64,000 nucleotides of DNA from a virus: IMG/VR virus record IMGVR_UViG_3300045988_179183; one strand, given 5' to 3'. The position numbers and the translations under genes are program-made. Of the stretch, positions 1 to 62,996 are shown piece by piece. The notes under the pieces were generated by a model. The model saw only the letters and a program-made list of their open reading frames with translations, had not been told where the DNA came from and searched no databases. Within the stretch, counting starts at the first letter, position 1. Every line of letters begins with the position of its first letter.

Positions 1-469
1 ATTTTTTTTGGCTTATATTAACTCTTCTCCTCAGTATCGTACGATTCTTATCACCCCACTCTGTGAAAGAGCCTTCCGACAAATAATAACCTAAAAATTC
101 ACAAAACAAATTGGTGTCATATTTTTTATTATCAATGACTATAAAGGGGGTATCAATGCCCTTCCATGAAGGAATATGCGAGAGGAATGAAAAATTATCC
201 TTGATATCACTTTCGTTCACCAATGAAATGTGTTTTTGCCCATGTTTCCTACCTACATGAACATGGTTCGGCGTGTTGGCGAGATCGAAACATTTTGATT
301 TCCGGTACACCATATCACCTTCATAATACTGATTAATCCACGCCACCGCCGGAACGTATTCTCCTTCTCCTGTTTCAGGATTAATTGATAAAAATAGTTC
401 GGTTTTATCCAAATCCTTAAAAAATTTCCACCCCTTATTCGTTAACACCTCGACTTTATCATCGTAGCA
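1..469 (-). mobile_element. Intein (N-terminal part, continues off-window) in minor head protein
   Basis: Begins at Cys codon 469-467. CYDDKVEVLTNKGWKFFKDL (block A), LANTPNHVHV (block B TxxH), FLGYYLSEGS (LAGLIDADG-type motif). Confidence 0.6.
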
Positions 470-1264
470 GAACGGATGAACTGCCGTGATGATCGTCGGT
501 TTCCAATCAGCCACCCTTCTACCGATATTCGTTCCGTTGCCAATTAACTCCTCGGCTGTGAATAATTTAGGCTCGCTTCCTATTCCAGCCGTCAAATATA
601 ATCTTATACAATGACGACATGCGGCTGGGTATACGTCGAAGTAAATCAATGTGTTAGACCCATCTCCTTCTCTCATATAAGATTGAACCCTACCCATATT
701 AAACACACCCTGATATTCGGTCTCCACGATTCGATTCCAATCCCTCGACCAATCATTTAGTTGATTGCTTATCTTGGCAGCTATCAACTTGGTCGTATCC
801 CTCTCAACAATTCCTCTTTTAACACCTTCTTTAATGGTGCGTTCCTGTTCCATCCTCATCCTAAGTTCAGAATCCGAGATATAACTGGAGATATCTTTTT
901 TCATCTTATCACCCAACCCCTTTAAATAGCCGTAAGTTCGATTACAGGCCATCTCATATTCCTCGATTTCCCTCTTGGAAGGCGTTTCATATTGTCTTCT
1001 AGCGAGGTAATCAAGAAGATCCTTGTAAGATATTTGTTTGGTCTGATAATCGCTTAATTTACCGGATAAAAGACCAAACATCCAATTCGCCCAGTACGGC
1101 GGTATCTTTTTAACGAGTGAACCGGGATCTATACCGTGTTTTTTCAAATTCTCTTTATCCTGAGATGTTAGGTGACTTGGCCCGAATATTTTCCAGACCA
1201 AGTCAGCAAACCTGAAATCCACCAATGACAATATTTCCTGTATCTGCTCGTTATTGAAAATCAT
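1..1264 (-). CDS. Minor head / head-morphogenesis protein (Mu F / SPP1 gp7-like); 3' end off-window; intein-interrupted
   Basis: ATG at 1264. My manual translation (MIFNNEQIQEILSLVDF...) stays open to nt 1. ...YPAACRHCIRLYL... and ...TAVHPF|C resemble the Cys/HPxC end of Mu F-like domains. Lies in the portal/head block. Confidence 0.55.
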   Translation of the reverse strand, partial: MIFNNEQIQEILSLVDFRFADLVWKIFGPSHLTSQDKENLKKHGIDPGSLVKKIPPYWANWMFGLLSGKLSDYQTKQISYKDLLDYLARRQYETPSKREIEEYEMACNRTYGYLKGLGDKMKKDISSYISDSELRMRMEQERTIKEGVKRGIVERDTTKLIAAKISNQLNDWSRDWNRIVETEYQGVFNMGRVQSYMREGDGSNTLIYFDVYPAACRHCIRLYLTAGIGSEPKLFTAEELIGNGTNIGRRVADWKPTIITAVHPFCYDDKVEVLTNKGWKFFKDLDKTELFLSINPETGEGEYVPAVAWINQYYEGDMVYRKSKCFDLANTPNHVHVGRKHGQKHISLVNESDIKDNFSFLSHIPSWKGIDTPFIVIDNKKYDTNLFCEFLGYYLSEGSFTEWGDKNRTILRRRVNISQKK

Positions 1265-3502: not shown

Positions 3503-3767
3503 CGTATTCTTTTTTTAACCGCTCGGTTTCCCGTTTAAACTTATCAAATGATTCCGCCTCTCTCCTCTTCTGCTCCTCTATCACGCGGACCAACTCGCCA
3601 CCCACGTTGTTCAAAGAATCCAACAATTTCCTGTTCTGAAAATCCTTCTCCTTCAAAAGCTCGGTGTTATCATCCTTCTGATCCCGGTTCACGTAAATGA
3701 ATAACGCTATCAGAATAAAGGTCAGTACAATGACCAACCCTTTATAACTTTTTCGCTTGGTCGTCAT
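3420..3767 (-). CDS. N-terminal TM, coiled-coil protein (i-spanin-like architecture)
   Basis: KGLVIVLTFILIALFIYV TM segment followed by a charged helical region. ATGA overlap with the portal stop. Confidence 0.5.
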   Translation of the reverse strand: MTTKRKSYKGLVIVLTFILIALFIYVNRDQKDDNTELLKEKDFQNRKLLDSLNNVGGELVRVIEEQKRREAESFDKFKRETERLKKEYDEKLRNLSNLTDDEHVRLLSEELSKED

Positions 3768-6700
3768 TCTTGAAAACTTTTATCTATGAATTCACATGCA
3801 CGTTCAAAAATGGGGTTACCTTTCATGCTTTTCTCCACTTCCTCGAACGGATTCGGAACACCCGCTTCAGGTTCACCCGTTTCATCATCCACGATCTGAT
3901 TCATACCCTCACCCCCGAACATGGAGGCCTGTTTCTGGGTTTGGTAAACCTGATTAAGGATGATATCCTTGTTCTCATCAAACTCCCTGCCGGAATACTT
4001 ACGGAACATATCCTGCATCGAAACCATACCGGCGGACAATTTTTCACTATCAAGTTTCACCTGTTTTTCTTCGTCTTCAACCTCGATACCCGTAAACGCG
4101 AACTCCATTTCTTCGTCTAACTCAGAAATCAAGAACTTATTTATGATATCCTGCAGGAAGATTAACAGGGGGTATAAACCTTTTTGCTTACTATGATCCA
4201 ATCTCTCTCGCTGACCTTGTTGCCCGAATAAATTCGCCGCTTCCCTGAATTGGAATCCCAGCTCGCTCGGATCGATTCGGTACACGGAACATAGTAGCAC
4301 GATCAAAAACTTGGTCCAGTTATCAAATTCCATGTCACGGTTTCCCTTCTGCAAATCCACCCACTCTAGATCAAGACCTGCGAAAATTGGGATTTTATGC
4401 GAGTTATGAGTAAGCATTCCATTTACGATAAATTGATGCTTATTATCATATATTTCGACATCATACATTGGAATTTCCTCATCAAAGGACGACAGTTCAA
4501 CTATAGGGGAGAACCAAAATTCACTAAACTCATCATGAAGTTTATATCCAATTCTCTCCGCGATACCGGTCAATCGCTGGTACGAACATTTATCTTTTCC
4601 AATCGATATCCTGTGTAAATCCGTCGTTAATCGCTGATCGCCAACACAACCACTTTCACCAAAAACCCATCTCCGATAAAGTTCAACTCTCATCTTTTTC
4701 GCTTCGAGTTTACCCATTTCGGGGTGTAATGAAAACATAGTTGAGTAATTTTTTTTATAATCATACCCCAACTGTTTATGTGGTTGAAGGAATCCGATTC
4801 TCTCATAAAATTCTCGTCTATCTTTCACTAAAAGATGAATTCCCTTCTTATCGGACTTACGTAACCTCGTTTTTGAATGATATTCCTCAATTGAACATTG
4901 TATTCCTTCCGATATCAATAACATCCTTGTTTGATATCGTAATAGATCGGATGAAATTGTAATCCTAACTCCCAACCCTTCACTCACAACACTACCATCC
5001 GCGGAGAAAAATCCTCTTAAAAACGCGCACCTTGATTCCGAATCAATATCATGTATCATAGGTGGGATAACCTTTCCTACATGGCTACAGGTAAATCCAA
5101 TACCAATTAGAAATTCATAAAAATCAGCATCAAATATACCTATTTTACAATATTTATCCGCCACAGATTTGAACCCATACACCTTTTTACAGGATTCTAT
5201 CTGATCGAATGATCTACAATAATCCTGCGATTTTGCATTTATGCCATATCGATTTAATACACATAGATGCTGCTCCCTTATATGTAATTCCTTTTCACTG
5301 TGATAGAATAATTCCATTCTTTTACGACGACTCTCACCGTTATCAATATAGCCATCACCGGTCAACCAGCCAAGAATCTCAAAAAGATCGTTCTCGACCA
5401 CCTTGCCCTTATAATAAAATTTTCGTGTACCTTCCACAGGTTTTTTATTACAAAGAACAAAATCTCCCACTTTAAGATCTTTTCTCTCCTTCCACTCTAT
5501 AATTCCTGAATCCGACACAACCTTAAACTTATGATTATCCGATGAAGTAATGGATAATCCATTTGCCAGGGTTAATGTACATTTCTTTTTAAGACCTGTC
5601 CTATACACACGGCCATACTCAAAGTTTTTCCCAGTCCAAATGATCGCCTCTTTTTCTTGTGATCCATTTAAAAAATCTTCAATGGACGTTACCCCGATAT
5701 TCTTTAATACCAATAACGAATCACCTGCTAAACAGTTATCCACTCCGGTAAGCATCTGACGCCACTTCTGTTTGAAATCATTTAACTGGGTTTGGTTCGT
5801 ATTTGGTCCGTTCATTTTTATGAACCCCTTCGGATTCGAGCCATTCTTGAAGAAATTACCGTTATATTGAACACCATTAAGGATATACGTGATAATCTCA
5901 ATTAACGATTCCAACTCACTTCTCCCGTATCCATTTTGCCAAATATCAGTTCCCACATTCCTTATCCCGAACCCAAGTTCCCACGGATAATACATGACAT
6001 AAGTGTTCAACTGTTTGTTGAACACAATCTGCTGATCAAAAACTTGACAATATTTGGGTAGGTACCCTTTATACCTGTATTGATCGAATTGATGTGCGTA
6101 ATTAGGGTCGACCGTGTCGAGAAAACGAATCATACTTCCATCAATCGCTTTGAATTGATGAAGTTCCTGTCCCCGGGTTCTTGTTATTTCAAAAGCGAGT
6201 TGATCTATCGAAAGTGAATCCTGCATGATCTTTCTCACAAATGTCACGAATGAATCGGGCATTTCCCATTTATCCGTTTCACCCCCATCTTCTAGAAATC
6301 TAACGATCCTTTCAACCCTTTTCTGTTCAGCCTTCGTCATCTCCTTCATATCCTCCTTGCTGTTAAACAAGGATCTTTTCCGTCGAATGGTGAACCCTTC
6401 TTTCTGTTCATCGGTTGAAAATTTCAAAAACCGCGTGATCTGTTCAATTCGAGTTGAGATAACATTCTTCACACAATACAGGTTACCCATTCTCTGCAGG
6501 GTCTGAAATGAGATTCTACTTAGAGTCTCCTTGTACCCTCTACCCGAATACGCTATACTATCAGGTAGGAAGAAAATGGATTTATTCTGCTCGGCGGATC
6601 GAATTCTCTGCTTTTCAACATACAAACCCGCTTCAATCGCCTTTTCAATATCATCCGATGCTAATGAAGCCTGTAATTTCGAATTCAAGATGGTGGGGAT

Positions 6701-6817
6701 TGCTTCACCCAGAGAACCCAATTCGCTGAATGACATGTTAGCGATACTCTTTATAACGCGATCATAATCGTTCGCGCTCTGACGCGATGCCGCTATTTTT
6801 CTTCCCTTTCTACTCAT
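3764..6817 (-). CDS. Portal protein, interrupted by one intein
   Basis: Exteins (361 + 212 aa) carry the portal-type motif FKQKWRQMLTGVDN|SHKIPIFAGLDLEWVDL. The spliced product would be 573 aa. Confidence 0.8.
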   Translation of the reverse strand: MSRKGRKIAASRQSANDYDRVIKSIANMSFSELGSLGEAIPTILNSKLQASLASDDIEKAIEAGLYVEKQRIRSAEQNKSIFFLPDSIAYSGRGYKETLSRISFQTLQRMGNLYCVKNVISTRIEQITRFLKFSTDEQKEGFTIRRKRSLFNSKEDMKEMTKAEQKRVERIVRFLEDGGETDKWEMPDSFVTFVRKIMQDSLSIDQLAFEITRTRGQELHQFKAIDGSMIRFLDTVDPNYAHQFDQYRYKGYLPKYCQVFDQQIVFNKQLNTYVMYYPWELGFGIRNVGTDIWQNGYGRSELESLIEIITYILNGVQYNGNFFKNGSNPKGFIKMNGPNTNQTQLNDFKQKWRQMLTGVDNCLAGDSLLVLKNIGVTSIEDFLNGSQEKEAIIWTGKNFEYGRVYRTGLKKKCTLTLANGLSITSSDNHKFKVVSDSGIIEWKERKDLKVGDFVLCNKKPVEGTRKFYYKGKVVENDLFEILGWLTGDGYIDNGESRRKRMELFYHSEKELHIREQHLCVLNRYGINAKSQDYCRSFDQIESCKKVYGFKSVADKYCKIGIFDADFYEFLIGIGFTCSHVGKVIPPMIHDIDSESRCAFLRGFFSADGSVVSEGLGVRITISSDLLRYQTRMLLISEGIQCSIEEYHSKTRLRKSDKKGIHLLVKDRREFYERIGFLQPHKQLGYDYKKNYSTMFSLHPEMGKLEAKKMRVELYRRWVFGESGCVGDQRLTTDLHRISIGKDKCSYQRLTGIAERIGYKLHDEFSEFWFSPIVELSSFDEEIPMYDVEIYDNKHQFIVNGMLTHNSHKIPIFAGLDLEWVDLQKGNRDMEFDNWTKFLIVLLCSVYRIDPSELGFQFREAANLFGQQGQRERLDHSKQKGLYPLLIFLQDIINKFLISELDEEMEFAFTGIEVEDEEKQVKLDSEKLSAGMVSMQDMFRKYSGREFDENKDIILNQVYQTQKQASMFGGEGMNQIVDDETGEPEAGVPNPFEEVEKSMKGNPIFERACEFIDKSFQE
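4403..5734 (-). mobile_element. Intein (444 aa) with LAGLIDADG homing endonuclease, in portal
   Basis: CLAGDSLLVL... (block A), TSSDNH (block B), LGWLTGDGYID and FLRGFFSADGSV (LAGLIDADG x2), ...FIVNGMLTHN|S. Confidence 0.85.
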
Positions 6818-7981: not shown

Positions 7982-8091
7982 TCCCCCTCTTTTTTACCCC
8001 ATTTGCCCGCTCTTTTTTACCCCATTTGCCCGCTCTTTTTTACCCCATTTCTCCATGTACAAAAAGTTGCCCGCTCTTTTTTACCCCATTT
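7982..8091. repeat. Four direct 23-bp repeats (iteron-like)
   Basis: gcccgctcttttttaccccattt at 8005-8027, 8028-8050 and 8069-8091. A degenerate copy lies at 7982-8004. Located in the divergent intergenic region. Confidence 0.9.
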
Positions 8092-8154
8092 GATTTACAA
8101 CCTATTTTAGACCGTATCGAACCTCTATTTTATAAAATAAACTTTGTTTATTTG

Positions 8155-8185
8155 TTTGGAATAAGATAAATAAGATGTATCTTTA
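8155..8185 (+). promoter_or_regulatory. Promoter (-33 TTTG / -7 TATCTTTA) for the plus-strand island
   Basis: TTTG (8155-8158)-N19-TATCTTTA (8178-8185), 108 nt upstream of ATG 8294. Confidence 0.55.
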
Positions 8186-38355: not shown

Positions 38356-40356
38356 TTAATCCAATTTTATCTGTTTACGTATTTCCTCCAATAATTCCGG
38401 GTTGTCGGATAGTACTGTTTTAACATTCACCTCTCCTTGACCCAGACTCGTTCCATTATAGGAGAACCAACTTCCGTTCTTCTTGATGATACCCTGCTCG
38501 ATCGATAAATCTAATATTTCTTGCATGATATCGATCCCCTTACCGAAAGCGATTGAAATCTCCGCCTGCTTAAACGGGGGTGCTATTTTGTTTTTTTTAA
38601 CGGTGACCTTGCTCCGAATAGCGGTGACATCGTCACCCTCTTTTTTATTACCCATCCTGCAAATCTCGATACGCTGGGATGCGTAAAATTTCATCGCGTT
38701 TCCTCCGGGTGTTGTGTTCGCCGCACCCATAAATCCGATATTACTTCGGTATTGATTTATGAATATAACCAACGTCTTATTCTTCTTTGCCTTCTGCGCT
38801 ATAAGGGGTAACTCCGCGCTCATCAACCGAGCGACTAATGCGATCACGGCATCACCGACCTCACCATCTATCCTCGCCTTGGGTACTAACGCGGCGATGG
38901 AGTCAAGGATAATTATACCAATATCCGGGCAATCCAACATCCTCCTCATGATGGAAAGGGCCATCTCTGCCGAATCTGCCTGACTTAACACAAACTTTTC
39001 CGGGCTCAAATCAACCCCGAGTGCCCTCATATAATCAGGATCCATTGCTTGCTCGGTATCGATATAACCCGCCGAGCGACCCATATCCTGTACTTCCCTG
39101 CACGCGTGAATGGCGAGGGAAGTATTATGTGTTATAACATGATCCTCAAGCAAATATGAATGATCGGGTGAATCTATGCTAATACAAGTACATTCGCCTG
39201 CATCAACCTCATCTATTGCGACAACCTTTCTATGACACCCCCTTCCTGTGAGAAGAGCGGCTTTACTATGCTTTCTTTTGCAACTAAATGGATTGAACGT
39301 CACCCTCAACGAAATAGAGTAATAGGAAAAACCTTTCGTGTTATGACATAATTTAACCGGGGACGTATATCCACCTAAACTTTGAACAAGATAAATGATA
39401 TCGTTTATAAGTTGAAGTGATGCGCTTGTATATGATACAACACTTGCCGAAACGCAACCATCCGTATCCATTAATCCCGCCAACAGATCCCTTCTTTGCG
39501 AAATAGAACCGTTGAGATAGTTTTTTGGTATAAACTTATCGGACGAAGGAACTCGAATACCTAATCGATCAAGTTCAGAAATATATTCATTTTCACGACT
39601 ATAAATATCCTTTACAATTCGATATTGAGAACAATTTTTCTGATTTCTACAAACAGTTATCCTGTAACCATCATTTAATTCTAATTTAACTCGATCGATA
39701 ATATCGGAATCAGTGTTTCCTATCGCCATAGTGGGATAACAATGGAGGCATCCATCGCCAAGAAGAACCCCCAAAATATAAGGAGAGATAAAACAATCAA
39801 TAGGTTCTCTCTCTAAAGGTTTGCATAAAGGAATCTCCCATCTATAATTAGGCTTTGTTATGCCCCTCCTATAATCACTCGGAACGCGATTTCTTAAAAC
39901 GCCTTTTTCTATCATTGATTTAAGCGTTCTGGGTGCATATTTTCGAATATGAGGGTTACCCATATCTTTTGCGAACCAAATATGGTCCTCCGAGCATATT
40001 TTTTCAACACCATCAATAAACCGAACCTTATATAATCGTTTTATTCCTTGAGGATAAACACCGGTTACAGGATAAAGGTTTCCATCCGACGCGTAAACCT
40101 TATCCCCTATTCTTAAACTCTCAATAGGCGTGAGACCTTGTTCCGTAAATATCTTTGTACCATTCTTTAGGGCTTTGCCACTCGATTCATGTCCGAATAT
40201 CTCAACCAGCCTACCCAGTCCGTAACCACCACCTAGCGCTCTATCTAGAATCAACGAACCCGATGGCACTCTCTCAACATCTATGTAACTACCACATATT
40301 GCTTCCTTGCCGAACTCTTTCTCAATTCCGGCAATCATACTTTTTAAATCCATCAC
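38356..40356 (-). CDS. recA: RecA recombinase, interrupted by one intein in the P-loop
   Basis: The exteins align along their whole length with bacterial RecA: GRLVEIFGHESSGK|TSLAIHA, IDTEQAMDPDY, ILDSIAALVPKA, IFINQYR, GGNAMKFYASQR, KNKIAPPFKQAE. Confidence 0.9.
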   Translation of the reverse strand: MMDLKSMIAGIEKEFGKEAICGSYIDVERVPSGSLILDRALGGGYGLGRLVEIFGHESSGKALKNGTKIFTEQGLTPIESLRIGDKVYASDGNLYPVTGVYPQGIKRLYKVRFIDGVEKICSEDHIWFAKDMGNPHIRKYAPRTLKSMIEKGVLRNRVPSDYRRGITKPNYRWEIPLCKPLEREPIDCFISPYILGVLLGDGCLHCYPTMAIGNTDSDIIDRVKLELNDGYRITVCRNQKNCSQYRIVKDIYSRENEYISELDRLGIRVPSSDKFIPKNYLNGSISQRRDLLAGLMDTDGCVSASVVSYTSASLQLINDIIYLVQSLGGYTSPVKLCHNTKGFSYYSISLRVTFNPFSCKRKHSKAALLTGRGCHRKVVAIDEVDAGECTCISIDSPDHSYLLEDHVITHNTSLAIHACREVQDMGRSAGYIDTEQAMDPDYMRALGVDLSPEKFVLSQADSAEMALSIMRRMLDCPDIGIIILDSIAALVPKARIDGEVGDAVIALVARLMSAELPLIAQKAKKNKTLVIFINQYRSNIGFMGAANTTPGGNAMKFYASQRIEICRMGNKKEGDDVTAIRSKVTVKKNKIAPPFKQAEISIAFGKGIDIMQEILDLSIEQGIIKKNGSWFSYNGTSLGQGEVNVKTVLSDNPELLEEIRKQIKLD
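39124..40173 (-). mobile_element. Intein (350 aa), Ala-1, class-3-like (WCT) with LAGLIDADG endonuclease, in RecA
   Basis: Begins ALKNGTKIFTEQG (Ala, not Cys/Ser). Block B SEDHIW, block F ECTCISID..DHSY, ends VITHN|T. ILGVLLGDGCL and LLAGLMDTDGCV are the LAGLIDADG motifs. Confidence 0.8.
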
Positions 40357-48776: not shown

Positions 48777-49569
48777 CGAATCCAGCAAAAAATCGGTACT
48801 TTTCAATATTAAATTTTATGTCATTCCATTGAGATTGTTGTACATCGATACCCACCATCTTATGAAGCATCACGGGAATTTTTTCTTCAAGTCCGCTATC
48901 CGTATATCTTACACCGTGTAAACCATGAATAACTGGATTAGATGTATCGATACTTCTGATAAAGTGATACTTATCCTCGTTATATTGGCAAACTTCTTGC
49001 GGTAATACTGTGCCCAGTAAATGCAACGGCTTTTCACAATCCATAACACCGTGATTGATGAGCTGGTCAATGAACATTTTTCTTCCTCTACAATATGCCT
49101 TCGATGTATTCTCATCAGCCGCGAGACTTAAATAAATGGGTAAGTTGAAAGGTAGCGCAACCATATCACAGCATTCGACCATGCATTTATAGCATTCGAC
49201 AAGTTCATTCCAACTTATCCCCTGAACAACACCGATTGAATAGCTGCACGATATTTTCTCCCACGTTCTCGCCATTCTCATCGTTTCTTTCGCATTTCTC
49301 AAAACATCGGGTAAAACGTAATAAGTTGGCTTCAGTGCCTTAATCCATGAACGAAATCTATTTGCGTCAAATGCCGACCCCAATTCGAACACTGAATTGT
49401 CAAGAATTACCTCGCGTCCCTTGTTAACAAGCGCATCCATGAAAAATTCGAAATAATCGCCACCTATATCGGGATCTTCAAACAAGTGAACAAGTGCGTA
49501 ATCATAATCAGTCATCGATTGAACCTTGTTCATAATCGATAACGGTGCTTCATGCGCTATCTTAATCAT
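48766..49569 (-). CDS. Uncharacterised protein, possibly a second TGT/DpdA-fold paralog
   Basis: REVILDNSVFELG vs DpdA DRIWLDSGGFTLF; GVVQGISWNE vs SIGGLAQGRE; PLHLLGT vs YVHLLGC. An 8-nt overlap with the queC stop suggests coupling. Confidence 0.4.
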   Translation of the reverse strand: MIKIAHEAPLSIMNKVQSMTDYDYALVHLFEDPDIGGDYFEFFMDALVNKGREVILDNSVFELGSAFDANRFRSWIKALKPTYYVLPDVLRNAKETMRMARTWEKISCSYSIGVVQGISWNELVECYKCMVECCDMVALPFNLPIYLSLAADENTSKAYCRGRKMFIDQLINHGVMDCEKPLHLLGTVLPQEVCQYNEDKYHFIRSIDTSNPVIHGLHGVRYTDSGLEEKIPVMLHKMVGIDVQQSQWNDIKFNIEKYRFFAGFVGK

Positions 49570-51292
49570 TGTGTTGATATTTTATGGGATCCGTCATTCC
49601 GTTTAATTCAAACGCTTCGAGCCGCTCGGTACAATTATGCACCAAATATCCCTCACAAATAAATGAACCAGCACTAGTCTTAATATCATATACATGTGCC
49701 TCCTTAACTGGTTCATCTATTTTATTTACCACCACTTGGTCTAAAAGCCTTATTGAATTATATGTGCCTAACTTTTCAAGCATCGACGCACGTTTTCCCG
49801 CACCGTACTTTAATGTAATTATGTACGGTCTTGTTACTCTCCAAGTTTGCATAAGGGTACCGCCCTCTTTAAAACCGGGCGTAACGGATTGCGACCTGTC
49901 ACACTTAATCCCCAACAATGATAATGCTTTATCGATTTGAATACACTTTTCTTTATTCACAATCACTGCTTGGCTTATAGAAAAACCGAATGATCCATTT
50001 GATTTATTATGACAAGCACACCCATCAGCTATCAACATTCCGTTTAAATACCCGCGCAAATACTCAGGGTGTTCATTAAATTTTGTCTTCTCAAGAAACA
50101 CAGGACCATAACCGCCACCAGCACGGTGCATGTTGGTATCCTCCCTGTAAGTGATTTTTACATCACATGGCTTGATATATTTATCATAAAGAGACCAAAA
50201 TTCTTCCAATACATCGAACTCCTTTTGAAATGTATGAACACCCCGTGTGTCAATGGATCCATCACCATCAGCAAATCCACGTAAATAACCCAGGGCGAAT
50301 TTTTCATCATCAACCTCTTTTCTTGTATTTGATACTGGCCAAAATTTCACCATATAAGTAGCATCCTTTCTCTTCATCTCCTCGTACTTTCTATATCTTG
50401 GCCTTAACTTCATATTTGAAGCATACACATAATGATCCTTCGTTAAAAGAAGACCCGCCATATCATATACCGGTTGAATACCATTATCAAACTTATCCAA
50501 TACCTTCGCCACACAAATTTTCTTCGTGTTTTCATCCACGGACCACACTTCGTCTCCAATACAAATATCCTTAATTTGCTTCCATGTATTATCACTCATC
50601 AGTACTTTCTGCGATTCTTCTATACACGACCCACACCTTCCACACGATCTTCCTTCTGGATCGGGATTATAGCACGTGTGAGTGTTACCCAGAACCAAAT
50701 TAATTTCATAATCATTGAACCCGAGGATCGTCATCGCACGTAACCCTTCGGCAAGTACACCGCCCTTATCCATGTGATTGAACGGAGCTTCGTATCCCAC
50801 TCTTTCACTACCCCAATTCGATACTTTAAACGCGTGCTCACAAGCGATTCGAGATTCCTCGGATGTATCAGGATAACAGCAATGATCGCCGCTATGTAGG
50901 CCTAAAAACACATCAACATTACTCTCCGTTTTATTCGCCCATGAAAGTGCCTTCCCATAAATGATAGCGGAAAAGATCACGTTTCTATTTTCAATAACCG
51001 TTGATTTCATATTTTCGGACGCGTAATGACCTTCCGGTATAGGTTCACCACCTACATGAAGGGACGAATTACTGTCACTGAAACAATCCCTCAGATCGAT
51101 AATCTGGTGTGATAACTTAAACCTCTTACCTTGCAAGAACTCAATATTTCTTTTCACCTTCTCCAATTCAACCTGATGCTTCTGACCGTATTGAAAAGAA
51201 TAAGCCTTAACTTCGTAATCATGAGCAAGTAAATACATGAGCAAGCACGTACTATCCAATCCGCCCGATAAACTTAAAATCGCCTTTTTCAT
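49562..51292 (-). CDS. queC: 7-cyano-7-deazaguanine (preQ0) synthase QueC, interrupted by one intein
   Basis: MKKAILSLSGGLDST (PP-loop), Zn-site Cys cluster SCGRCGS[intein]CTERLEAF. Start trimmed from 51349 to ATG 51292, 1 nt after the upstream stop. Confidence 0.85.
   Translation of the reverse strand: MKKAILSLSGGLDSTCLLMYLLAHDYEVKAYSFQYGQKHQVELEKVKRNIEFLQGKRFKLSHQIIDLRDCFSDSNSSLHVGGEPIPEGHYASENMKSTVIENRNVIFSAIIYGKALSWANKTESNVDVFLGLHSGDHCCYPDTSEESRIACEHAFKVSNWGSERVGYEAPFNHMDKGGVLAEGLRAMTILGFNDYEINLVLGNTHTCYNPDPEGRSCGRCGSCIEESQKVLMSDNTWKQIKDICIGDEVWSVDENTKKICVAKVLDKFDNGIQPVYDMAGLLLTKDHYVYASNMKLRPRYRKYEEMKRKDATYMVKFWPVSNTRKEVDDEKFALGYLRGFADGDGSIDTRGVHTFQKEFDVLEEFWSLYDKYIKPCDVKITYREDTNMHRAGGGYGPVFLEKTKFNEHPEYLRGYLNGMLIADGCACHNKSNGSFGFSISQAVIVNKEKCIQIDKALSLLGIKCDRSQSVTPGFKEGGTLMQTWRVTRPYIITLKYGAGKRASMLEKLGTYNSIRLLDQVVVNKIDEPVKEAHVYDIKTSAGSFICEGYLVHNCTERLEAFELNGMTDPIKYQHND
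49634..50626 (-). mobile_element. Intein (331 aa) with LAGLIDADG endonuclease, in QueC
   Basis: CIEESQKVLMSDNTWKQIKDICIGDEVWSV (block A), LLLTKDHYV (block B), LGYLRGFADGDGS and LRGYLNGMLIADGCA, ends EGYLVHN|C. Confidence 0.8.
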
Positions 51293-53803: not shown

Positions 53804-53806
53804 ATT

Positions 53807-54448: not shown

Positions 54449-54473
54449 ATTTCGTGTTTTATCTCGTTTTTAA

Positions 54474-55238: not shown

Positions 55239-55465
55239 AAATAAGCGTTATACAATTCTATAAACTCGGCGAGATCCAGTTCTGAGAATCTCCGTTCTTT
55301 CGCAATCTCTTTAATAAGATCAAGTTGATTTTCATAAAGCTCGTCCGCCATCTCACCATACCCGCTCACCCTTAAATCAATCACAGGCAATGAAAGTTCA
55401 AATGCCAGACTTTCATCAAACCCATAGCGATCAACAAGATCATTTAGTTCCTTTTTCGTTATCAT
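55232..55465 (-). CDS. Small acidic protein of unknown function, coupled between queD and queE
   Basis: 77-aa ORF. Overlaps the queD stop (4 nt) and the queE start (7 nt). Confidence 0.5.
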   Translation of the reverse strand: MITKKELNDLVDRYGFDESLAFELSLPVIDLRVSGYGEMADELYENQLDLIKEIAKERRFSELDLAEFIELYNAYLC

Positions 55466-56037
55466 AACTTCACTTGTAGTTCAACCTTTGGGTTCACGAA
55501 TTTAATCCCTCGAAAAAGTTTATGATAAATCTCAGTTTTTGCCAGTGAAGGGCTAACTTCTATTTCTTCGGGATACATTTCCAAGTATCTATCATAATCA
55601 TTTCGATCCGATTCGGCATAACCAGTATCTGTTTCATGAACTCGCACTGATTGCACAACCACGTTACCCTCACCATTGTTAAATTCTGTTTTTTCCAATA
55701 TCGATTCAAAACAAGCGAAAAACATGGATGAGAGTAATTCAGCGGAGGGATTGCAAGGTAAAATTATCCACCTATCATTCATCGCCTGTATAAAATTTTT
55801 GTAAACCTCGTTATCCTTCGCCCACAATAAATGAGTATGATCGAATAAATCAACGACTTCTTTAAAATTACCAAGAAGACCGAAATCGACGACCATCCCT
55901 GCGTTATCCAAACGATCCGAGGTCAAAAATAACTCAACTTTATAGCTGTGTCCGTGAATTGAATGTGAACATCTGTCCGATGTACAATTTCTCACAATAT
56001 GGCTTCCCTCAAACTTAAACAATTTTCTAATTATCAT
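55462..56037 (-). CDS. queD: 6-carboxy-5,6,7,8-tetrahydropterin synthase QueD
   Basis: FKFEGSHIVRNCTSDRCSHSIHGHSYKVELFL: the QueD/PTPS Cys plus HGH motif. Confidence 0.85.
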   Translation of the reverse strand: MIIRKLFKFEGSHIVRNCTSDRCSHSIHGHSYKVELFLTSDRLDNAGMVVDFGLLGNFKEVVDLFDHTHLLWAKDNEVYKNFIQAMNDRWIILPCNPSAELLSSMFFACFESILEKTEFNNGEGNVVVQSVRVHETDTGYAESDRNDYDRYLEMYPEEIEVSPSLAKTEIYHKLFRGIKFVNPKVELQVKL

Positions 56038-56554: not shown

Positions 56555-57566
56555 ATATCGTTTTATCTAGGTTATTTAAATAAAAATTCAAAGGATCCTG
56601 CATATCGATCAGAACTCGTTGTAAATATTGCATCGTCATATTTCCGGGATCAACATCTTTATCCTTTATCCGACAAACTTTCACATTGAAAAATTTACTC
56701 AAATGGAGTGCTGTTTCCTTGCTTTCCCTTAAAGCGTCCTCATCGTACATTAAGATCACCGTTTTGACGTTCGTTTTTCTTAATTGATTCAATTGACCCG
56801 GACTTATCTTCTTGCCAAATGTGAAGCAACATGCGATTTCTTGGTTAAATCCCAGGTTAATCAGATAATCAACGTTCACCTTATCAAACAAACCCTCAAC
56901 CAATATCACCGTTTCTGTTTCCGGCCCGATAAAATTATACCCACCCAGAATATGAGAAAAACCATCCTGACTGTTCATGTATCGTAGAACCATTTTGCCA
57001 ATACCTTCCTTGAATAACGTTCTATTATTATCATGCCACGTTTTATTGTATCGTGACCTTGCCAGCCACGCGACAACCCTATCTCCTTCCTTAATCTTGA
57101 AGATAATGTAATTATGCTTGGCTAACGTCTCCTCCAAAACTGATTTAGTGTATGATGGTTCAAATTCTTCATAGTGTTCCTTTAAAAAATGCCTGCTCTC
57201 CAGATACGGATCGTTGACCAAAGGTTTCAACCCAATGGGGAGTCTTGTGTTTGATTGAACATTCTCTTCAATATCATCCTCTTCTTTGATTAAAGGTGTT
57301 AATTTAGTATTTTTTTTCGACATTTGGTAATCATTTCTTATCAAATCTTTTCGGTCCATTTTGATAAGATAATTACGAATACTTGTTTTCGTTCCGCATT
57401 TAAAACAATGGAATACTGCCGAATGTCCATCGTCCGTGAAAATTAATGCATTCTTCCCATCTTTCCCACAAAACGGGCACGGTTCTTTCGAACTTAACCA
57501 ACCTTTTTGGCCGAAGGGCTTGAGGTTTAATTCGGCGATTATCTCATCCTTATCAATAATCATCAC
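56511..57566 (-). CDS. dnaG: DNA primase (zinc finger plus TOPRIM)
   Basis: CPFCGKDGKNALIF...FHCFKCG zinc finger; VILVEGLFDKVN and VILMYDEDA TOPRIM acidic motifs. Confidence 0.8.
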   Translation of the reverse strand: MMIIDKDEIIAELNLKPFGQKGWLSSKEPCPFCGKDGKNALIFTDDGHSAVFHCFKCGTKTSIRNYLIKMDRKDLIRNDYQMSKKNTKLTPLIKEEDDIEENVQSNTRLPIGLKPLVNDPYLESRHFLKEHYEEFEPSYTKSVLEETLAKHNYIIFKIKEGDRVVAWLARSRYNKTWHDNNRTLFKEGIGKMVLRYMNSQDGFSHILGGYNFIGPETETVILVEGLFDKVNVDYLINLGFNQEIACCFTFGKKISPGQLNQLRKTNVKTVILMYDEDALRESKETALHLSKFFNVKVCRIKDKDVDPGNMTMQYLQRVLIDMQDPLNFYLNNLDKTIYDTSERKINGKGIF

Positions 57567-58981
57567 ACAACCCTCCCTTTCTGTTCGTTTGAATTAGATC
57601 TTGTTCGTTTTCTCCCACCACCATGTGTGTGTGTAATTTTTAAATCATAGAATTCCTCTAGGGTTCTCTTTCTATCATAGAACCGTCCGGCGTTATAATT
57701 CGTTGCCACTTTAAAAACAGGATCGATATTTTCATAATCACGGACCTTATCCTTGAAAATCCTACAAGTTTTATGTTTCACCTCCTCTAATGTTTGATTA
57801 ATAGAAAATACCCAACTAAAAGGTTGAACAACAGTTCTATCACCTTCCGCGTAGCTTCGATCTATAACTTTTTCTTCGTCATTCCAAACTTCAAAAGGAA
57901 CATCACCCGTCTGAATCGCGGTTACACAGGACATACTGAATTCCTCACACATATTTTTCAATCTTTTTCCACACTCCTGAAACTTATATTTTGGTCGGGG
58001 GTCATTATCAAAACTCGGTATACCCGTTCTTATCAGGTTAAATGAATCTATGATTAAAATCCTAGGAAACTTACCCACTAATTTCTTATATTCGAGGCAT
58101 ATCGTCCTCACATCAAGAATGGTCGCATCACCAAATTTCTTGAAACTGTAAATTTTAATATCATTCGCATAGGATTCTATATCCTTCAATGTCTTATGTA
58201 AATCATCAAGCTCATCCTGGGTGAAATTATCCTCCTTCAAATCGGTATACGTCTTAAAGGTCCACATCTGGGAATATTTCATATGTATTTTCTCTTTCGC
58301 CTCCTCACATTGGATATGAAGAACGTCTGCCCCGGTAAGTGCGGATGTTAACCCCCTCCATCGTAACACTGTTGACTTTCCCACCCCGGATCTGGCCAAC
58401 CATAACTCAGTGTCGCCCACATCAATTCCCCCGTATTTATCATCAAGTGCATCTATTCCGAATGCAACAGGAGGCTGCTGCTCTGTTTTTTCGGCCCAAT
58501 CTTTCCGGCATTTATCAAAATCACTAAACACCCCTAAAAACATCTCCGACTGAGCCCTTAATGAAAATTCCAAAATCCTCGTACTTTCCTCCTTGCTTAA
58601 CCTCATCGCCTCTTCTTTTTTTCCTTCACCATAAAGATCAACGATGGCCTTGTTAAGGAGAAGAAATTCACTGTCACGAATATAGCTTTCAAGTTGATTT
58701 AAAAGGACTTCGTCATCAACAATTTGAGATTCCTTTATCTGATCAACCGCGAGTTGAACAGACTCCATGTCACTATATTTTTGGGAGATAACCCCCAGTG
58801 AAGGTATTTTATCATATTGGTGAAACTGTTCTTTCGCATCCTTCAAAATAAATTTATACCCCACTTCCTCTTTAGGAATAAATTTAAAATCAAGGTGTCT
58901 GTCAACAATAAACATCATTTCCTTGCTTAGAAACATTTTCCGAAACAGTTCACCTAAAAAATTTGCGTTTATTTTTTCCAT
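57563..58981 (-). CDS. DnaB-like replicative helicase
   Basis: LWLARSGVGKST (Walker A), RILIIDSFNL (Walker B), RecA-like C-terminal domain. Trimmed to ATG 58981, 1 nt after the terL stop. Confidence 0.8.
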   Translation of the reverse strand: MEKINANFLGELFRKMFLSKEMMFIVDRHLDFKFIPKEEVGYKFILKDAKEQFHQYDKIPSLGVISQKYSDMESVQLAVDQIKESQIVDDEVLLNQLESYIRDSEFLLLNKAIVDLYGEGKKEEAMRLSKEESTRILEFSLRAQSEMFLGVFSDFDKCRKDWAEKTEQQPPVAFGIDALDDKYGGIDVGDTELWLARSGVGKSTVLRWRGLTSALTGADVLHIQCEEAKEKIHMKYSQMWTFKTYTDLKEDNFTQDELDDLHKTLKDIESYANDIKIYSFKKFGDATILDVRTICLEYKKLVGKFPRILIIDSFNLIRTGIPSFDNDPRPKYKFQECGKRLKNMCEEFSMSCVTAIQTGDVPFEVWNDEEKVIDRSYAEGDRTVVQPFSWVFSINQTLEEVKHKTCRIFKDKVRDYENIDPVFKVATNYNAGRFYDRKRTLEEFYDLKITHTHGGGRKRTRSNSNEQKGRVV

Positions 58982-58982
58982 A

Positions 58983-61900
58983 TCAATCCAAATCAACAAA
59001 ATCAATCATTGCCTGTACGTTGTTTTCCCTCAAATCTTGTATTGCCATGAACGATGACATACATATATCATCATGTCCACAAACTGATTCAAGAGTCCCT
59101 TTCTTTGAGTTAAACGCGATTGAATTAAATTCACCAAACATCGTATCAACCAACTTTCGTGTGTTTTCATCTCCGTAAGGCACCCTCAAACGTGCACTTT
59201 CAAAAAACGCTGATAGTGAGGGTAGACCTGATTTCAGATCCTTTTTATTCCCTTCAGTTGTGATAAATTCCTCGACATTAACTAATCCCCTCTCTTTCGC
59301 CATACCCGCAAGAATTCTTTGAAATCCATTCGACTCACACACGGATTTGTTCGGTTTATATCTCGCGTTAAATTCAATAAGTTTATTCACTTGAAGATCA
59401 TGGCTCGCACCCTGCTCTCTAAATATATTTATAAGATATATCAATCCGTGTGCATCCATACCCCATACAGTGTATACTGTATAATCGGCACCCACATTAC
59501 CCGATATCGCAAAATCACATCCCACGACAACCCTGACTAACTTTATGGGGTAACTTTCTATATCATTTGCGAAACTGATATGTTCCATCCCACGTATCGA
59601 TCTTTTCAGAAATTCATACGGGAAAATCGTTGACGTGTCCGCGATCGGCACAACTAGATATTCTCGGTTGAAAACTAACGTTCCAAGTGATTTCCGTTCC
59701 TCCGTTAACCTTTTAAACGTAAGACGATCAGGTGCTAACAGTTGACCATTTGGGAAAACCGCCGGGTATTCAAATACCTTGAATCGGCCATCTTTTTTTA
59801 AATCCCCGTAAATATCCGTTGCCGAATACGGTGTGTTGTGTGATATTATCCCATTCGAAATAAACCGATGAGAAATTGGGATTTTGAAATCAACGGTGTA
59901 AGACTCACTCTCAATTATCGATTTTATCGGTGCGAAATGATACTTCAAATTCATATTACTCAAAATAATCTGAACATCAGGATCATTTTGAGGTAAAGAT
60001 AAAATCCATTTTTTTATCGGTCCGTTCATTCTTTTAAAAGAATGAACTTTCGTATAAAAATCCCCCGATCTCATACCGTAAAATTTCATCTTATCATTAC
60101 CCAACGGATATTTTGATCGAATCTTTCTTAATATCACCGATTGAAACGGTATTCCTTTATCAATGCAAGAGGATTCTCTCCTAGTTTCTCGCGGAACCTT
60201 CCCTTTTCCTGAATAAGTGAACCCGATTTTCTCCATGAATAGTTTCACGCTCGAATTTTTGCTTATAACCAAATTGTATCCTGTTCGGTTTGATTTAACT
60301 AATTCGGTTGATTGGCATTTTTTCTTCTCAATACGTGAATCAATCCCCATGTTAAGAAGAAGTATTTGAATCTGCTGGATTAAACGAAAGCTCGTTGAAA
60401 AATAGCTTACATTTATTCCTTTATCTGAACGATGTCCGTGATAGCAGCATCCATCGCCATCAAAACACCCTCGAAGAAACCATATAACATCCTCCTCGGA
60501 CGCACTCATGATTTTATCAGGAATTGTCTTGGTATGCGAATACATCCCTTTTCGATACCCTAAACTCAACCACGTGGAGATTTTCTCCTTGCTATTAAAC
60601 GACATCCCTATGTGATTTTTCTTAGGGTGATACCCCCTCTCATTAATCAGAAAATTTCTTATACCGGGATTCTTTTTTGTTATCGTGACCCTATTTCCAT
60701 AACCACTTAAATCCAACGTACCGTCCGCTATACAAAGCCCGATTTCATAAAGCTCCTCCCCTTCTATACCAAGAGAACGACCCCAAATATTTGACCCCAT
60801 CTTAAACGCGACAAAATCTCCTTCATACAAATCTTTCGCGTTAACCCATTCGAATAAGCCCGTTTCCGAATTACATCTAAGTAAAGGATGAATGAAACTT
60901 GTTTCAATCTCCAATCCGTTTGAAAGGGTTATGATTTTTGTGGGGGTTTTTCCGTTTACGTAATAGTCTGTCGCGTTAACAAATCCCTCACCATCATGAA
61001 TGTTCATATCAAGAGGGAAAAACCCCTTCTCTCTTTCAATATTAACAGGAGATAATTTGCCAATTTCAGTTAAACCGTTTTCGGTAAACACGTACGTATC
61101 TGGTCTCACACAACCGAGTACACATAAATAGCCGAACGGTTCCACGATCGGAGTGATTGACCCGTAAAAAACTTCATGAAGCTTCTCCCTTTGCTCTTGT
61201 GAATACAACGAACTTTCATCAGGCAGGTCGTCGCATACGACGGCACCAACGTGAAGACCTCGAATCATGGAATCTTTCGATCTCAAATGGAGGATTGAAT
61301 CTGTTTCAGTCGTGATTGATGTCGCGGCTAACTTAGCTTTTCCGTTGCGATTCAATTTCTCCCGAAGAATATCATTTTGCTCTATCTCGGAAATAATCAT
61401 CGCGATGTGTTTCTTGCCGAGTGTTTCATTATTCGTAATCATACACGTTTCCTTACGATTCTTATTGTCGATACTATCCCTAAGAAACGTGGTTGGTCGG
61501 TCATAAGAATATAACCTCCATAAAATGAATGCAAAACACCCCTCGTAACTATTATGTACAACGGTCCCATCTTTCAAGAGAAAAAGGTGATCTCCGTCAC
61601 AAGAAAAACCAACATAATCGCCATCACCGATACATTCAACCTTGAGAGAGGTTGATAAATTATCCTGCACCGTGATTTTTGAAGGTATCTTCTTTCTTTC
61701 TATTTTCACAGGAATTTCATCAACATCTCCCGAAATTGTTATCCTGTAATGAGTATAATCATGAAGGATGTTTTCACCCTTTAATGTTTTCACCTTTACA
61801 TCTGCCGTCCGAGTTATAATCGAATTACATCTGAATCCCAATGATTGAGCAAGTCTTTGCGTTTGCTCTATTAAATTCCTGTCCTTAAACCCAATTTCAA

Positions 61901-62996
61901 AAGCATATTTACTTCGAGGATTTCCTTTTTTATACTGGGATGAACCGTCAGTATCAATTAACCCGGCTAAAAGTTTCAACCGTTGTTCCCTTGATCCAAG
62001 AAGATAAATTTCAGGTATATGCTTATTACCAAGAACCCCTAAATCTTTAAGAGCGGTTTTTAGGCGGTTTTTGAATAACCTTTCTTTTTCAATAATTCGA
62101 TATGAATATTTATTTGAATTATGTTTTGACAAAATAAAACCGTTTTTCTCACAAAATTCATTTAAATATTCAATTATTTCATGATCAATAGTTGTCACTA
62201 CGGGTTCCGTGTATAAACCATCACCCAACCACAACCCCAATAAATACGGATCAACAGGAAGGTCTTTTTCAGGAAGGTCCCACCCCTTCGTTCTATACCC
62301 CATTATTTTTCTCTGAGTGTACCCTGGCATAGAGGGGATCTCCTCAACGGGAATATTAAAGGTTTTCCAGCGCATATCTTTCCCAATACGTTTTTCATAT
62401 CGAGATGGAACCTTCTTTTTGCAACAAACAATATGACCCTCGTTTACAACGTAATCAATACCCCATGTTTGTTTCACTTTCCACATTCTCGATCTACCTT
62501 TGTGTAAAGATAAAACGGTTCTTGGTTTTGAATCGGGCCCCATAACTTGATCTCCGATCGAAACATCCTTTATCTTGCGAATCGTTCCATCAGCCATCAC
62601 TATTTCTGTCTCGGGAGATAAACACTTTCCCGATGAGCGGCTCGCTAAAATGCAGTTATACAAATATAACTGGAATAGGTTACCCCATTCAAGGTTTCTC
62701 CATCCCTGTCGAAACGTTGGAAGACAAACAGTTTTAAAATAATTATAACTCTGCTTACGTAGCGAGAGGTCCATGCTCTTCTCCACGTTGGCGAGATATT
62801 CCAGTTTTTCCATGTCAAGAGTTCTATCCATGTGGGTAACGATGCATGTTTGTTCTCTCATCACGGATAGAAGCCGATCCAAATCATTTTCATAACCTGA
62901 AAGTAACTCTTGGATCGCCTTCGGTGGTAAACTCGATATTATCTCCCTGACGTAGTTATCTATATAGCTTTCTTGTACGGGAGATAATAACATCAT
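58983..62996 (-). CDS. terL: Terminase large subunit, interrupted by two inteins
   Basis: Exteins (124 + 146 + 283 aa): Walker A ASRSSGK|S, Walker B AVVCDDLPDE, VLG|TPYS coupling motif, nuclease VGCDFAISGNVGADYTV ... GHDDICMS. Confidence 0.85.
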   Translation of the reverse strand: MMLLSPVQESYIDNYVREIISSLPPKAIQELLSGYENDLDRLLSVMREQTCIVTHMDRTLDMEKLEYLANVEKSMDLSLRKQSYNYFKTVCLPTFRQGWRNLEWGNLFQLYLYNCILASRSSGKCLSPETEIVMADGTIRKIKDVSIGDQVMGPDSKPRTVLSLHKGRSRMWKVKQTWGIDYVVNEGHIVCCKKKVPSRYEKRIGKDMRWKTFNIPVEEIPSMPGYTQRKIMGYRTKGWDLPEKDLPVDPYLLGLWLGDGLYTEPVVTTIDHEIIEYLNEFCEKNGFILSKHNSNKYSYRIIEKERLFKNRLKTALKDLGVLGNKHIPEIYLLGSREQRLKLLAGLIDTDGSSQYKKGNPRSKYAFEIGFKDRNLIEQTQRLAQSLGFRCNSIITRTADVKVKTLKGENILHDYTHYRITISGDVDEIPVKIERKKIPSKITVQDNLSTSLKVECIGDGDYVGFSCDGDHLFLLKDGTVVHNSYEGCFAFILWRLYSYDRPTTFLRDSIDNKNRKETCMITNNETLGKKHIAMIISEIEQNDILREKLNRNGKAKLAATSITTETDSILHLRSKDSMIRGLHVGAVVCDDLPDESSLYSQEQREKLHEVFYGSITPIVEPFGYLCVLGCVRPDTYVFTENGLTEIGKLSPVNIEREKGFFPLDMNIHDGEGFVNATDYYVNGKTPTKIITLSNGLEIETSFIHPLLRCNSETGLFEWVNAKDLYEGDFVAFKMGSNIWGRSLGIEGEELYEIGLCIADGTLDLSGYGNRVTITKKNPGIRNFLINERGYHPKKNHIGMSFNSKEKISTWLSLGYRKGMYSHTKTIPDKIMSASEEDVIWFLRGCFDGDGCCYHGHRSDKGINVSYFSTSFRLIQQIQILLLNMGIDSRIEKKKCQSTELVKSNRTGYNLVISKNSSVKLFMEKIGFTYSGKGKVPRETRRESSCIDKGIPFQSVILRKIRSKYPLGNDKMKFYGMRSGDFYTKVHSFKRMNGPIKKWILSLPQNDPDVQIILSNMNLKYHFAPIKSIIESESYTVDFKIPISHRFISNGIISHNTPYSATDIYGDLKKDGRFKVFEYPAVFPNGQLLAPDRLTFKRLTEERKSLGTLVFNREYLVVPIADTSTIFPYEFLKRSIRGMEHISFANDIESYPIKLVRVVVGCDFAISGNVGADYTVYTVWGMDAHGLIYLINIFREQGASHDLQVNKLIEFNARYKPNKSVCESNGFQRILAGMAKERGLVNVEEFITTEGNKKDLKSGLPSLSAFFESARLRVPYGDENTRKLVDTMFGEFNSIAFNSKKGTLESVCGHDDICMSSFMAIQDLRENNVQAMIDFVDLD
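59835..61112 (-). mobile_element. Intein 2 (426 aa) with LAGLIDADG endonuclease, in terL
   Basis: CVRPDTYVFTENGLTEIGKL (block A), ETSFIHPLL (block B), IGLCIADGTLD and FLRGCFDGDGCC, ends NGIISHN|T. Confidence 0.85.
61551..62624 (-). mobile_element. Intein 1 (358 aa) with LAGLIDADG endonuclease, in the terL P-loop
   Basis: CLSPETEIVMADGTIRKIKDVSIGDQV (block A), LLGLWLGDGLY and LLAGLIDTDGSS, ends KDGTVVHN|S. Confidence 0.85.

Follow-up and report, generated by a model that had tools for sequence, protein, structure and literature searches.

Six LAGLIDADG inteins at polymorphic insertion sites in a tailed phage from human-gut metagenomes

The stretch of DNA analysed here (the window; 64,000 nucleotides (nt) of the virus record IMGVR_UViG_3300045988_179183) is derived from a tailed phage of approximately 102 kb that is common in human-gut metagenomes, and its long open reading frames (ORFs) are all located on the minus strand, to which the coordinates below refer. 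Six in-frame inserts with the anatomy of LAGLIDADG inteins are present in the genes terL (two inserts), recA, queC, portal and that of a MuF-like minor head protein. They total 6,195 nt, or 9.7% of the window, in agreement with the estimate of about 6.2 kb and 10% in an initial annotation made from the letters alone, and ORF translation and reading of the junctions reproduced the six boundaries of that annotation to the base. The annotation had further assigned the inserts to five essential genes; five host genes are indeed affected, but recA and queC are not strictly essential genes of a phage, so that the adjective does not apply to these two.

The terL precursor ORF (58983..62996) encodes 1337 amino acids (aa), of which 553 aa remain after subtraction of both inteins, and contains a Terminase_6C domain. 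The first insert, terL intein 1 (61551..62624; 358 aa, class 1), interrupts the Walker A motif SRSSGK/S (the slash marks the insertion point or splice junction here and below) and reads SRSSGK/CLSPET...TVVHN/SYEG, with LAGLIDADG motifs at 62217-62243 and 61944-61973. It is recognized by Hom_end_hint with 64 bits (Pfam cut-off 32.1) and by Hom_end, and its Hint N-terminus aligns with the solved structure of PI-SceI at an E-value of 1e-15. The second insert, terL intein 2 (59835..61112; 426 aa, class 1; CVLG/CVRPDT...IISHN/TPYS), has its LAGLIDADG motifs at 60720-60746 and 60450-60479 and is located within what may be an ATPase coupling motif; the alignment of LG/TP with the LGTP motif of T7 gp19 was non-significant (E 0.9). 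LAGLIDADG_3 matches terL intein 2 in two stretches with 77.8 bits, and Intein_splicing with 32.6 bits, which is under the cut-off but significant.

The recA precursor ORF (38356..40356) encodes 666 aa, or 316 aa when spliced. Its intein (39124..40173; 350 aa) lies within the Walker A motif ESSGK/T and reads ESSGK/ALKNGT...VITHN/TSLA, with LAGLIDADG motifs at 39751-39777 and 39457-39486; it bears the signature of class 3, which is treated below. The queC precursor (49562..51292) comprises 576 aa when counted from the ATG at 51290-51292, and 245 aa when spliced; database proteins of 576 aa carry PF06508 and PF14528. Its intein (49634..50626; 331 aa, class 1; CGRCGS/CIEESQ...YLVHN/CTER) has LAGLIDADG motifs at 50258-50293 and 50021-50059 and, as read from the sequence, precedes the fourth Cys of the QueC Cx9CxxCxxC cluster. 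LAGLIDADG_3 scored 27.7 bits in this intein (cut-off 22.5) and the Hint-domain score was under the cut-off but significant, and no match to a solved structure was obtained. The family is QueC-specific, as 64 of 64 homologues, down to 39% identity, are located within QueC proteins; a literature search found no paper describing a QueC intein. The placement of insertions at two P-loops and at the QueC zinc site, as proposed initially, is thus supported by sequence and Pfam for RecA (GK/T) and by sequence for terL (SRSSGK/S) and for the QueC cysteine cluster.

The portal precursor ORF (3764..6817) encodes 1017 aa, or 573 aa when spliced, and its intein (4403..5734; 444 aa, class 1; TGVDN/CLAGDS...MLTHN/SHKI) has LAGLIDADG motifs at 5351-5377 and 4994-5023 and scores of 39.1 bits for Intein_splicing (cut-off 35.8) and 42.7 bits for LAGLIDADG_3. 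Regarding solved structures, this intein and terL intein 2 gave weak matches to the Pho RadA intein and PI-PkoII. Downstream of portal lies the MuF-like gene (1..1264), of which the window holds the N-terminal 421 codons; its product has a weak PHROG match to 'head morphogenesis' (E 7.5e-4) and no Pfam match. The insert in this gene, MuF intein b (2..469; class 1; AVHPF/CYDDKV...), interrupts AVHPF/CRC and continues beyond the window, which holds the first 156 of its 349 aa. Block B (TPNH, 263-274) and a first LAGLIDADG-type motif (FLGYYLSEG, 71-97) were seen in the partial copy, as had been reported for it. In P0112, which has the same sequence variant as the window, the precursor is complete (662 aa, 313 aa spliced) and the intein of 349 aa ends VCVSGN/CRC, with its second motif, FLLGDG, in the off-window part.

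Across the six inteins, in the order terL 1, terL 2, recA, queC, portal and MuF b, the first residues are C, C, A, C, C and C, the block B motifs NEGH, SFIH, SEDH, TKDH, SDNH and TPNH, and the +1 residues S, T, T, C, S and C; the C-terminus is HN in five and GN in MuF intein b, and the acidic residue (Asp or Glu) is kept in 12 of 12 LAGLIDADG motifs. The description of each complete intein as having blocks A and B, a terminal HN and two LAGLIDADG motifs therefore holds for the five that are complete in the window, with the qualification that Ala1 of the recA intein is non-canonical, and the sixth, once complete, ends in GN. A Pfam scan, which the initial annotation had proposed as a check, found LAGLIDADG_3, Hom_end_hint, Hom_end and Intein_splicing across four host ORFs, with LAGLIDADG_3 above its cut-off in terL, recA, queC and portal; it fell short for the MuF insert and for several Hint scores. 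Alignment with hhalign of a profile of the two MuF inteins (a and b; see below) with a profile of the other six inteins covered 326 columns with a probability of 97.3% (E 6e-11). MuF intein b further gave weak PDB matches to PI-PkoII and KlbA (0.01), with an alignment to the KlbA intein in block F/G. The proteins spliced in silico yield single contiguous Pfam matches for RecA (3-262 of 262, E 2e-80), QueC (1-208 of 210) and Phage_portal (51-312 of 321, E 3e-19). No seventh intein was found in the window, either with home-made hidden Markov models of the Hint N- and C-termini on the six-frame translation or with Pfam and PHROGs on the remaining ORFs that encode 150 aa or more, nor was any Rfam intron.

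The contig family of the window (about 100 kb, from human-gut metagenomes) was compiled from IMG/VR loci retrieved with TerL, portal, RecA and QueC in their spliced form. For every contig, the spacing of the N- and C-extein flanks was entered into an occupancy matrix, in which each site proved either occupied, by an insert of constant length, or empty, with a gap of 0. Comparison with intein-free alleles in related phages, also suggested at the outset, yielded such empty alleles, exact to the nucleotide, among sister contigs at all six insertion sites of the window. The site of terL intein 1 is empty in 177702, 177254 and others, that of terL intein 2 in 177702, 174270, 171031 and others, that of recA in 177456, 177254, 168653 and others, that of queC in 183516, 177254, 171031 and others, and that of portal in 177456, 171031, 168653 and others; the empty alleles of the MuF b site read HPFCRC (L027, L028) or HPNCRC (L025). 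Since sister alleles lack the inserts to the nucleotide and the spliced proteins give contiguous Pfam matches, chance is excluded, and the inserts are real, precisely bounded and dispensable. All six are very probably functional inteins.

Occupancy is mosaic, and its combinations are independent. In contig 177702, TerL is free of inteins and has 100% identical exteins, yet the inteins of recA, queC, portal and MuF are all there; locus L001 has an intein-free terL allele with 100% identical exteins. Only the queC and MuF a inteins are found in contig 1528_699, one terL intein apiece in 182771 and 183516, and at least six of seven visible sites are filled in 179604. Two further sites are empty in the window and occupied in sisters. 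At MuF site a (617..622, YPAA/CRHC), eight sister contigs carry an intein of approximately 364 aa (YPGA/C), 50 residues upstream of the MuF b site; the MuF a and MuF b inteins are paralogues of 31% identity, and each directly precedes a Cys of a CRxC motif. The P-loop of a DnaB-like helicase gene (57563-59005), SGVGK/STVL (58373..58378), holds in five sister contigs an intein of 361 aa (SGVGK/ALTLDT…VPTHN/STVL). Loci with the DnaB intein, the second MuF intein or both include L014, L015 and L031. With the DnaB P-loop and MuF a sites occupied in sisters, the family has eight polymorphic sites, six of them filled in the window. In relatives, the approximately 38 kb outside the window and 10 kb on either side of the ribonucleotide reductase (RNR) gene revealed no intein sites beyond the eight, so that the genome total is probably six, or about one intein per 17 kb.

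All intein copies across the contigs are open reading frames, and an identity of 99.6-100% between intein copies contrasts with no more than 76-95% in the flanks around them. In 7111_187, the values are 99.85% for the portal intein and 76.5% and 79.2% for its two 400-nt flanks; in 29567_17, the queC intein shares 99.6% identity and an adjoining flank 79.2%; and in 177702, the recA intein shares 100% and its flanks 94.7%, whereas the flanks in the intein-less 177456 are 99-99.7% identical. Around the portal site of 7111_187, agreement with the window extends only about 25 nt on the upstream side and about 10 nt on the downstream side before the sequences diverge again, which reads as a short co-conversion tract. 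When occupied and empty alleles from otherwise identical genomes were compared within +-36 nt of the site, terL a, terL b and recA differed by 7-17 nt and 0-1 aa, and dnaB by 8 nt and 0 aa. The portal extein co-varies with occupancy (window 4388-4417 and 5735-5770; L023-L034), all occupied alleles having GVDN/SHK and all empty ones GTEN/S or GTEN/A; the GTEN/A alleles, from diverged lineages, are without the +1 nucleophile needed for splicing. Between diverged copies the ratio of non-synonymous to synonymous substitution rates (dN/dS) of the endonuclease regions is approximately 0.05-0.14, similar to that of the Hint regions; the endonuclease regions are under purifying selection. The identity contrast, the co-conversion, the clustering of synonymous changes at the junctions and the dN/dS values are the footprints that endonuclease-driven homing would be expected to leave, and the inteins have probably spread recently by this route. 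The suggestion in the initial annotation that the endonucleases are intact and possibly still mobile is strongly supported by this site polymorphism, by the near-identity of inteins in diverged flanks and by purifying selection.

Class 3 inteins have no nucleophile at position 1 and a Trp-Cys-Thr (WCT) triad at B:12, F:4 and G:5 (PMC5050341, PMC7664689). In the recA intein these residues are found in SEDHIW (His B:10, Trp B:12; 39976-39993), ECTCISID (Cys F:4; 39172-39195) and ITHN (Thr G:5; 39124-39135), and with its Ala1, which is conserved in four other contigs, it is to be classified by sequence signature as class 3 and not as canonical. Among 14 homologues located at GK/ sites, Cys F:4 and Thr G:5 are present in 14, Trp B:12 in 12 and a non-nucleophilic first residue in 12; homologues at 30-37% identity occupy the GK/ sites of SNF2, DnaA-like, ABC, PhoH and terminase-like P-loop ATPases. 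Compared with solved structures, the recA intein matched gp41-1 (E 1e-8), with Trp and Cys in register in the alignment to gp41-1_WCT, and its endonuclease domain aligned to residues 208-454 of PI-SceI. The sister DnaB intein also has Ala1 and the W, C and T residues, and it matched the class 3 structures MchDnaB1 (6rix) and MsmDnaBi1 (6bs8) at E 1e-10. A recent switch of extein between the DnaB and RecA P-loops was considered and rejected, the two class 3 inteins being just 29.6% identical, for which reason they are regarded as old paralogues. A class 3 intein in the RecA P-loop is not unique to this phage either: many RecA proteins of 670-700 aa carry ESSGK/A...THN/TT inserts, and at least 44 of the top 150 metagenomic RecA representative clusters have an ESSGK/ insert, of both Ala1/W/T and Cys1 types.

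In anatomy, each intein is a Hint splicing domain into which a LAGLIDADG homing endonuclease with two motifs is inserted. According to the proposed mechanism, translation of the host gene would yield a precursor, from which the intein would excise itself while ligating the exteins, thereby restoring the Walker A and LG/TP motifs of TerL, the Walker A motif of RecA, the QueC cysteine cluster, the portal protein and the CRC motif of the MuF-like protein. Five inteins would follow the class 1 route, with Cys1, the xxH of block B, the terminal Asn and a Ser, Thr or Cys at +1; the recA intein would follow the class 3 route, in which, position 1 being Ala, the block F Cys of the WCT triad would act as the first nucleophile. 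In co-infected cells, the endonuclease released by excision would cut an intein-less sister allele, and repair would copy the intein together with a flank of a few to approximately 25 nt. As cutting and repair would copy each intein into empty alleles, the eight elements may segregate independently through the phage population. We hold with considerable confidence that this is a gut phage in which six of eight homing sites are filled by full-size inteins capable of splicing and homing.

Several points weigh against this reading. Splicing chemistry, endonuclease cleavage and homing as the route of transfer are deduced from sequence. For terL intein 2, recA and queC, the Hint-domain scores do not reach the curated Pfam cut-offs, and for MuF intein b no Pfam match exceeds the threshold (LAGLIDADG_3 18.6 bits, under the cut-off). 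Grafting of WCT onto gp41-1, the closest solved relative of the recA intein, did not produce a splicing-competent intein (PMC7664689), so that the WCT signature alone is no proof of class 3 chemistry. The clusters of synonymous changes at the junctions admit two readings: a diverged donor may have contributed them by co-conversion, or the empty sites may have been recoded. In addition, the RNR of the window (26411-28756) has approximately 80% protein identity to sisters that are 98-100% identical in neighbouring genes and, to judge from this contrast, represents a mosaic segment that has been replaced; the inteins could thus owe part of their patchy occurrence to ordinary recombination in genomes that are mosaic anyway. 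In its strong form, this would mean that homologous recombination of whole gene segments produced the distribution and that the endonucleases may be inactive passengers, an explanation which the RNR segment and the queC exteins, ranging from 80 to 100% identity among contigs identical elsewhere, would favour. We nevertheless regard it as improbable: in diverged backgrounds (portal in 7111_187, queC in 29567_17), the transferred segments stop no farther than approximately 10-25 nt from the intein boundaries, which homing, unlike random crossover, predicts, and the exactness of the empty alleles, the Hint-like dN/dS of the endonuclease regions and the acidic residues kept in every LAGLIDADG motif weigh against it as well.

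The inteins might instead be retained as conditional switches, their splicing gated by redox, zinc or nucleotide and their mobility secondary. Three sites (QueC, MuF a and MuF b) are at cysteine clusters with Cys1 and Cys at +1, three others are within P-loops, and zinc- or oxidant-conditional splicing is documented for the class 3 mycobacterial DnaB intein (PMC6195587, PMC7360933). Every intein is dispensable, however, near-identical phages existing without each one; homing elements in general insert at conserved motifs (PMC4760082), and the sequence holds nothing that separates regulation from simple parasitism, so that this explanation, too, appears unlikely. That the inserts are artefacts of assembly or gene calling, such as chimeric contigs or misjoined reads, might be suspected in a window derived from a metagenome; it can practically be dismissed, as identical or near-identical precursors recur, in frame and with correct splice junctions, in many independent assemblies (ENA, JGI, Logan, NCBI). 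Beyond the preferred reading of six filled homing sites, substitutions in the empty terL, recA and portal alleles cluster densely and only in the endonuclease target; at terL and recA they are almost purely synonymous. More speculatively, an arms race that is still under way, and not simple spread, may be recorded in the eight sites, intein-less phages recoding their homing sites to cleavage-resistant or splicing-incompatible forms and each intein thereby persisting in the human gut as a balanced polymorphism, possibly with zinc- or redox-dependent splicing at QueC, MuF a and MuF b.

The host of the phage is probably a Bacteroidales bacterium. The nearest cultured TerL proteins are those of Bacteroides phages DAC16-23 and SJC03 (34% identity), and the RefSeq entries WP_418448723.1 and WP_418448735.1 (proteins P0027 and P0084), which represent the phage's precursors of QueC and TerL, carry the label Barnesiella intestinihominis; these labels are the sole clue to the host and are taken as a hint. 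A megablast search against phage records gave no match for the window, and a portal scan of GTDB representative genomes gave none. Window proteins, including those of phage genes flanking the precursors, are indexed in 165-179 blocks of an assembly collection, on contigs of 96-108 kb, and the clusters of the two-intein TerL and of the portal protein have 358 and 278 member sequences, respectively; given this abundance, phages bearing the intein precursors are viable. The exact recA precursor is not in the sequence collection, probably because of a different called start.

Other features of the window include the dnaE gene, which is in two pieces (43657-48056; N-terminal ORF 46434-48056, C-terminal part 43657-45693) with a free-standing GIY-YIG homing endonuclease gene (45707-46507; phrog_314, E 6e-18) between them. 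In the relative L081 the DnaE gene is intact and reads ERFLNKGRVQVSLPDLDTDF. L093-95 and the distant L099 are without the GIY-YIG endonuclease and still have DnaE as two overlapping ORFs, with a conserved N-terminal tail of approximately 52-66 aa and a C-terminal leader of 17-18 aa. The split gene has no Rfam intron match even at E <= 1 and no similarity to Hint domains. A split intein was rejected, as the N-terminal tail starts with Ile-Gly, the C-terminal leader ends in GG/ or LR/ without Asn, and hhalign against N-halves of inteins gave a probability of 1.2%; a group I intron was rejected on the lack of an Rfam match and on the conservation of the tails at the protein level in the distant relative. 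DnaE is encoded in pieces, with the free-standing GIY-YIG endonuclease between them. At the start of its C-terminal part (region 45630-45720) there is no ATG, GTG or TTG before the catalytic DIDTDF, and the frame opens with ATT right after a TAA; the leader contains a perfect hairpin of 11 bp, GGCAGCGAAUC…GGUUCGCUGCC (-20.5 kcal/mol, z -3.3). An HNH endonuclease ORF (19454-19984; 176 aa, phrog_5200, E 4e-19), which adjoins the RNase H gene, is probably another free-standing homing endonuclease.

The queC gene belongs to a complete cluster for 7-deazaguanine (preQ0-type) DNA modification (49562-56037), the members of which encode QueD-like (55462-56037), QueE-like radical SAM (54474-55238), GTP cyclohydrolase (FolE; 53807-54448), DpdA/TGT-like (52477-53373) and QueC (49562-51292) proteins, interspersed with thymidylate kinase and dCTP deaminase. 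The region 8000-12000 is the sole one with plus-strand ORFs (8294-8875 and 9230-9706); it has the lowest G+C content (0.34) and an inverted GC skew and probably marks the boundary of a module or a unit that is transcribed divergently. A protein of 332 aa encoded downstream of MuF grows to 687 aa in the relative L105 (15574-17637); an intein was considered for this variant and rejected, the added part being a C-terminal extension.

Among known systems, the cluster C1 mycobacteriophages, of which Cane17 has seven inteins and Blubba and Colt have six (bioRxiv 10.1101/2025.01.02.630785), are likewise tailed phages and rich in LAGLIDADG inteins, both of class 1 and of class 3 (Kelley et al. 2016, PMC5050341; bioRxiv 10.1101/2025.01.02.630785). 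They share with the present phage the hosts TerL, portal, minor capsid protein and helicase, insertion at P-loops and at the TerL coupling motif, and, in some phage inteins, replacement of the penultimate His by Gly (PMC5050341). The intein load, initially called exceptional, is thus high in density; it is not unprecedented, given the seven of Cane17. Unlike cluster C1, this phage has a genome of approximately 102 kb, a host that is probably from the Bacteroidota and not from the Actinobacteria, QueC and RecA as intein hosts, and, in one near-clonal family, both the occupied and the empty state of all eight sites. As intein hosts in phages, TerL, portal, minor capsid protein and helicase were known already. 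The crAss-like Delta and Zeta phages (Yutin et al. 2021, PMC7886860) are also human-gut phages of Bacteroidetes with a heavy self-splicing load and up to two inteins in TerL, and the density in the Zeta phages, up to 3 inteins and 14 introns, was described as unprecedented (PMC7886860). They differ in that group I introns dominate (up to 14), with at most three inteins as compared with six in the window, and their lineage is unrelated to this phage, which has a DnaE-type polymerase and a TerL closest to the DAC phages.

Regarding single elements, the recA intein and the sister DnaB intein share Ala1, Trp B:12, Cys F:4, Thr G:5 and the GK/S or GK/T site with the class 3 DnaB P-loop inteins (MsmDnaBi1 6bs8, MchDnaB1 6rix and DnaB of mycobacteriophage Bethlehem). 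The sequence relative gp41-1 (6qaz) is itself a class 1 intein, and, unlike gp41-1 and the solved class 3 mini-inteins, the recA intein is located in RecA and has a full PI-SceI-type LAGLIDADG domain. PI-SceI, the VMA1-derived endonuclease, resembles terL intein 1 in the Hint N-terminus and in Hom_end_hint and Hom_end, and the recA intein in the endonuclease domain; the host gene is different and the overall identity is approximately 25-30%.

Inteins have usually been studied singly, in cultured actinobacteria, archaea or yeast. The six elements belong to already known types, namely class 1 and class 3 LAGLIDADG inteins, and the added value lies in the picture of the population. Saturation with inteins like that of cluster C1 mycobacteriophages also occurs in Bacteroidales-type gut phages, and QueC, from the 7-deazaguanine DNA-modification pathway, joins the known intein hosts. 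Full-length inteins with the class 3 signature are present outside the Actinobacteria, as sequence relatives of the engineered gp41-1 scaffold, and gut phages hold a further lineage of this class. For annotation the precursors are a trap, since RefSeq calls the TerL precursor a 'LAGLIDADG family homing endonuclease' and such precursors inflate the apparent lengths of genes in virome catalogues. For the biology of the family, a single abundant group of uncultured gut phages offers eight independent candidate homing sites with both states in near-identical genomes, and may thus serve as a natural experiment on the intein homing cycle of invasion, fixation, resistance and loss, in which co-conversion and recoding of the target could be followed at single-nucleotide resolution.

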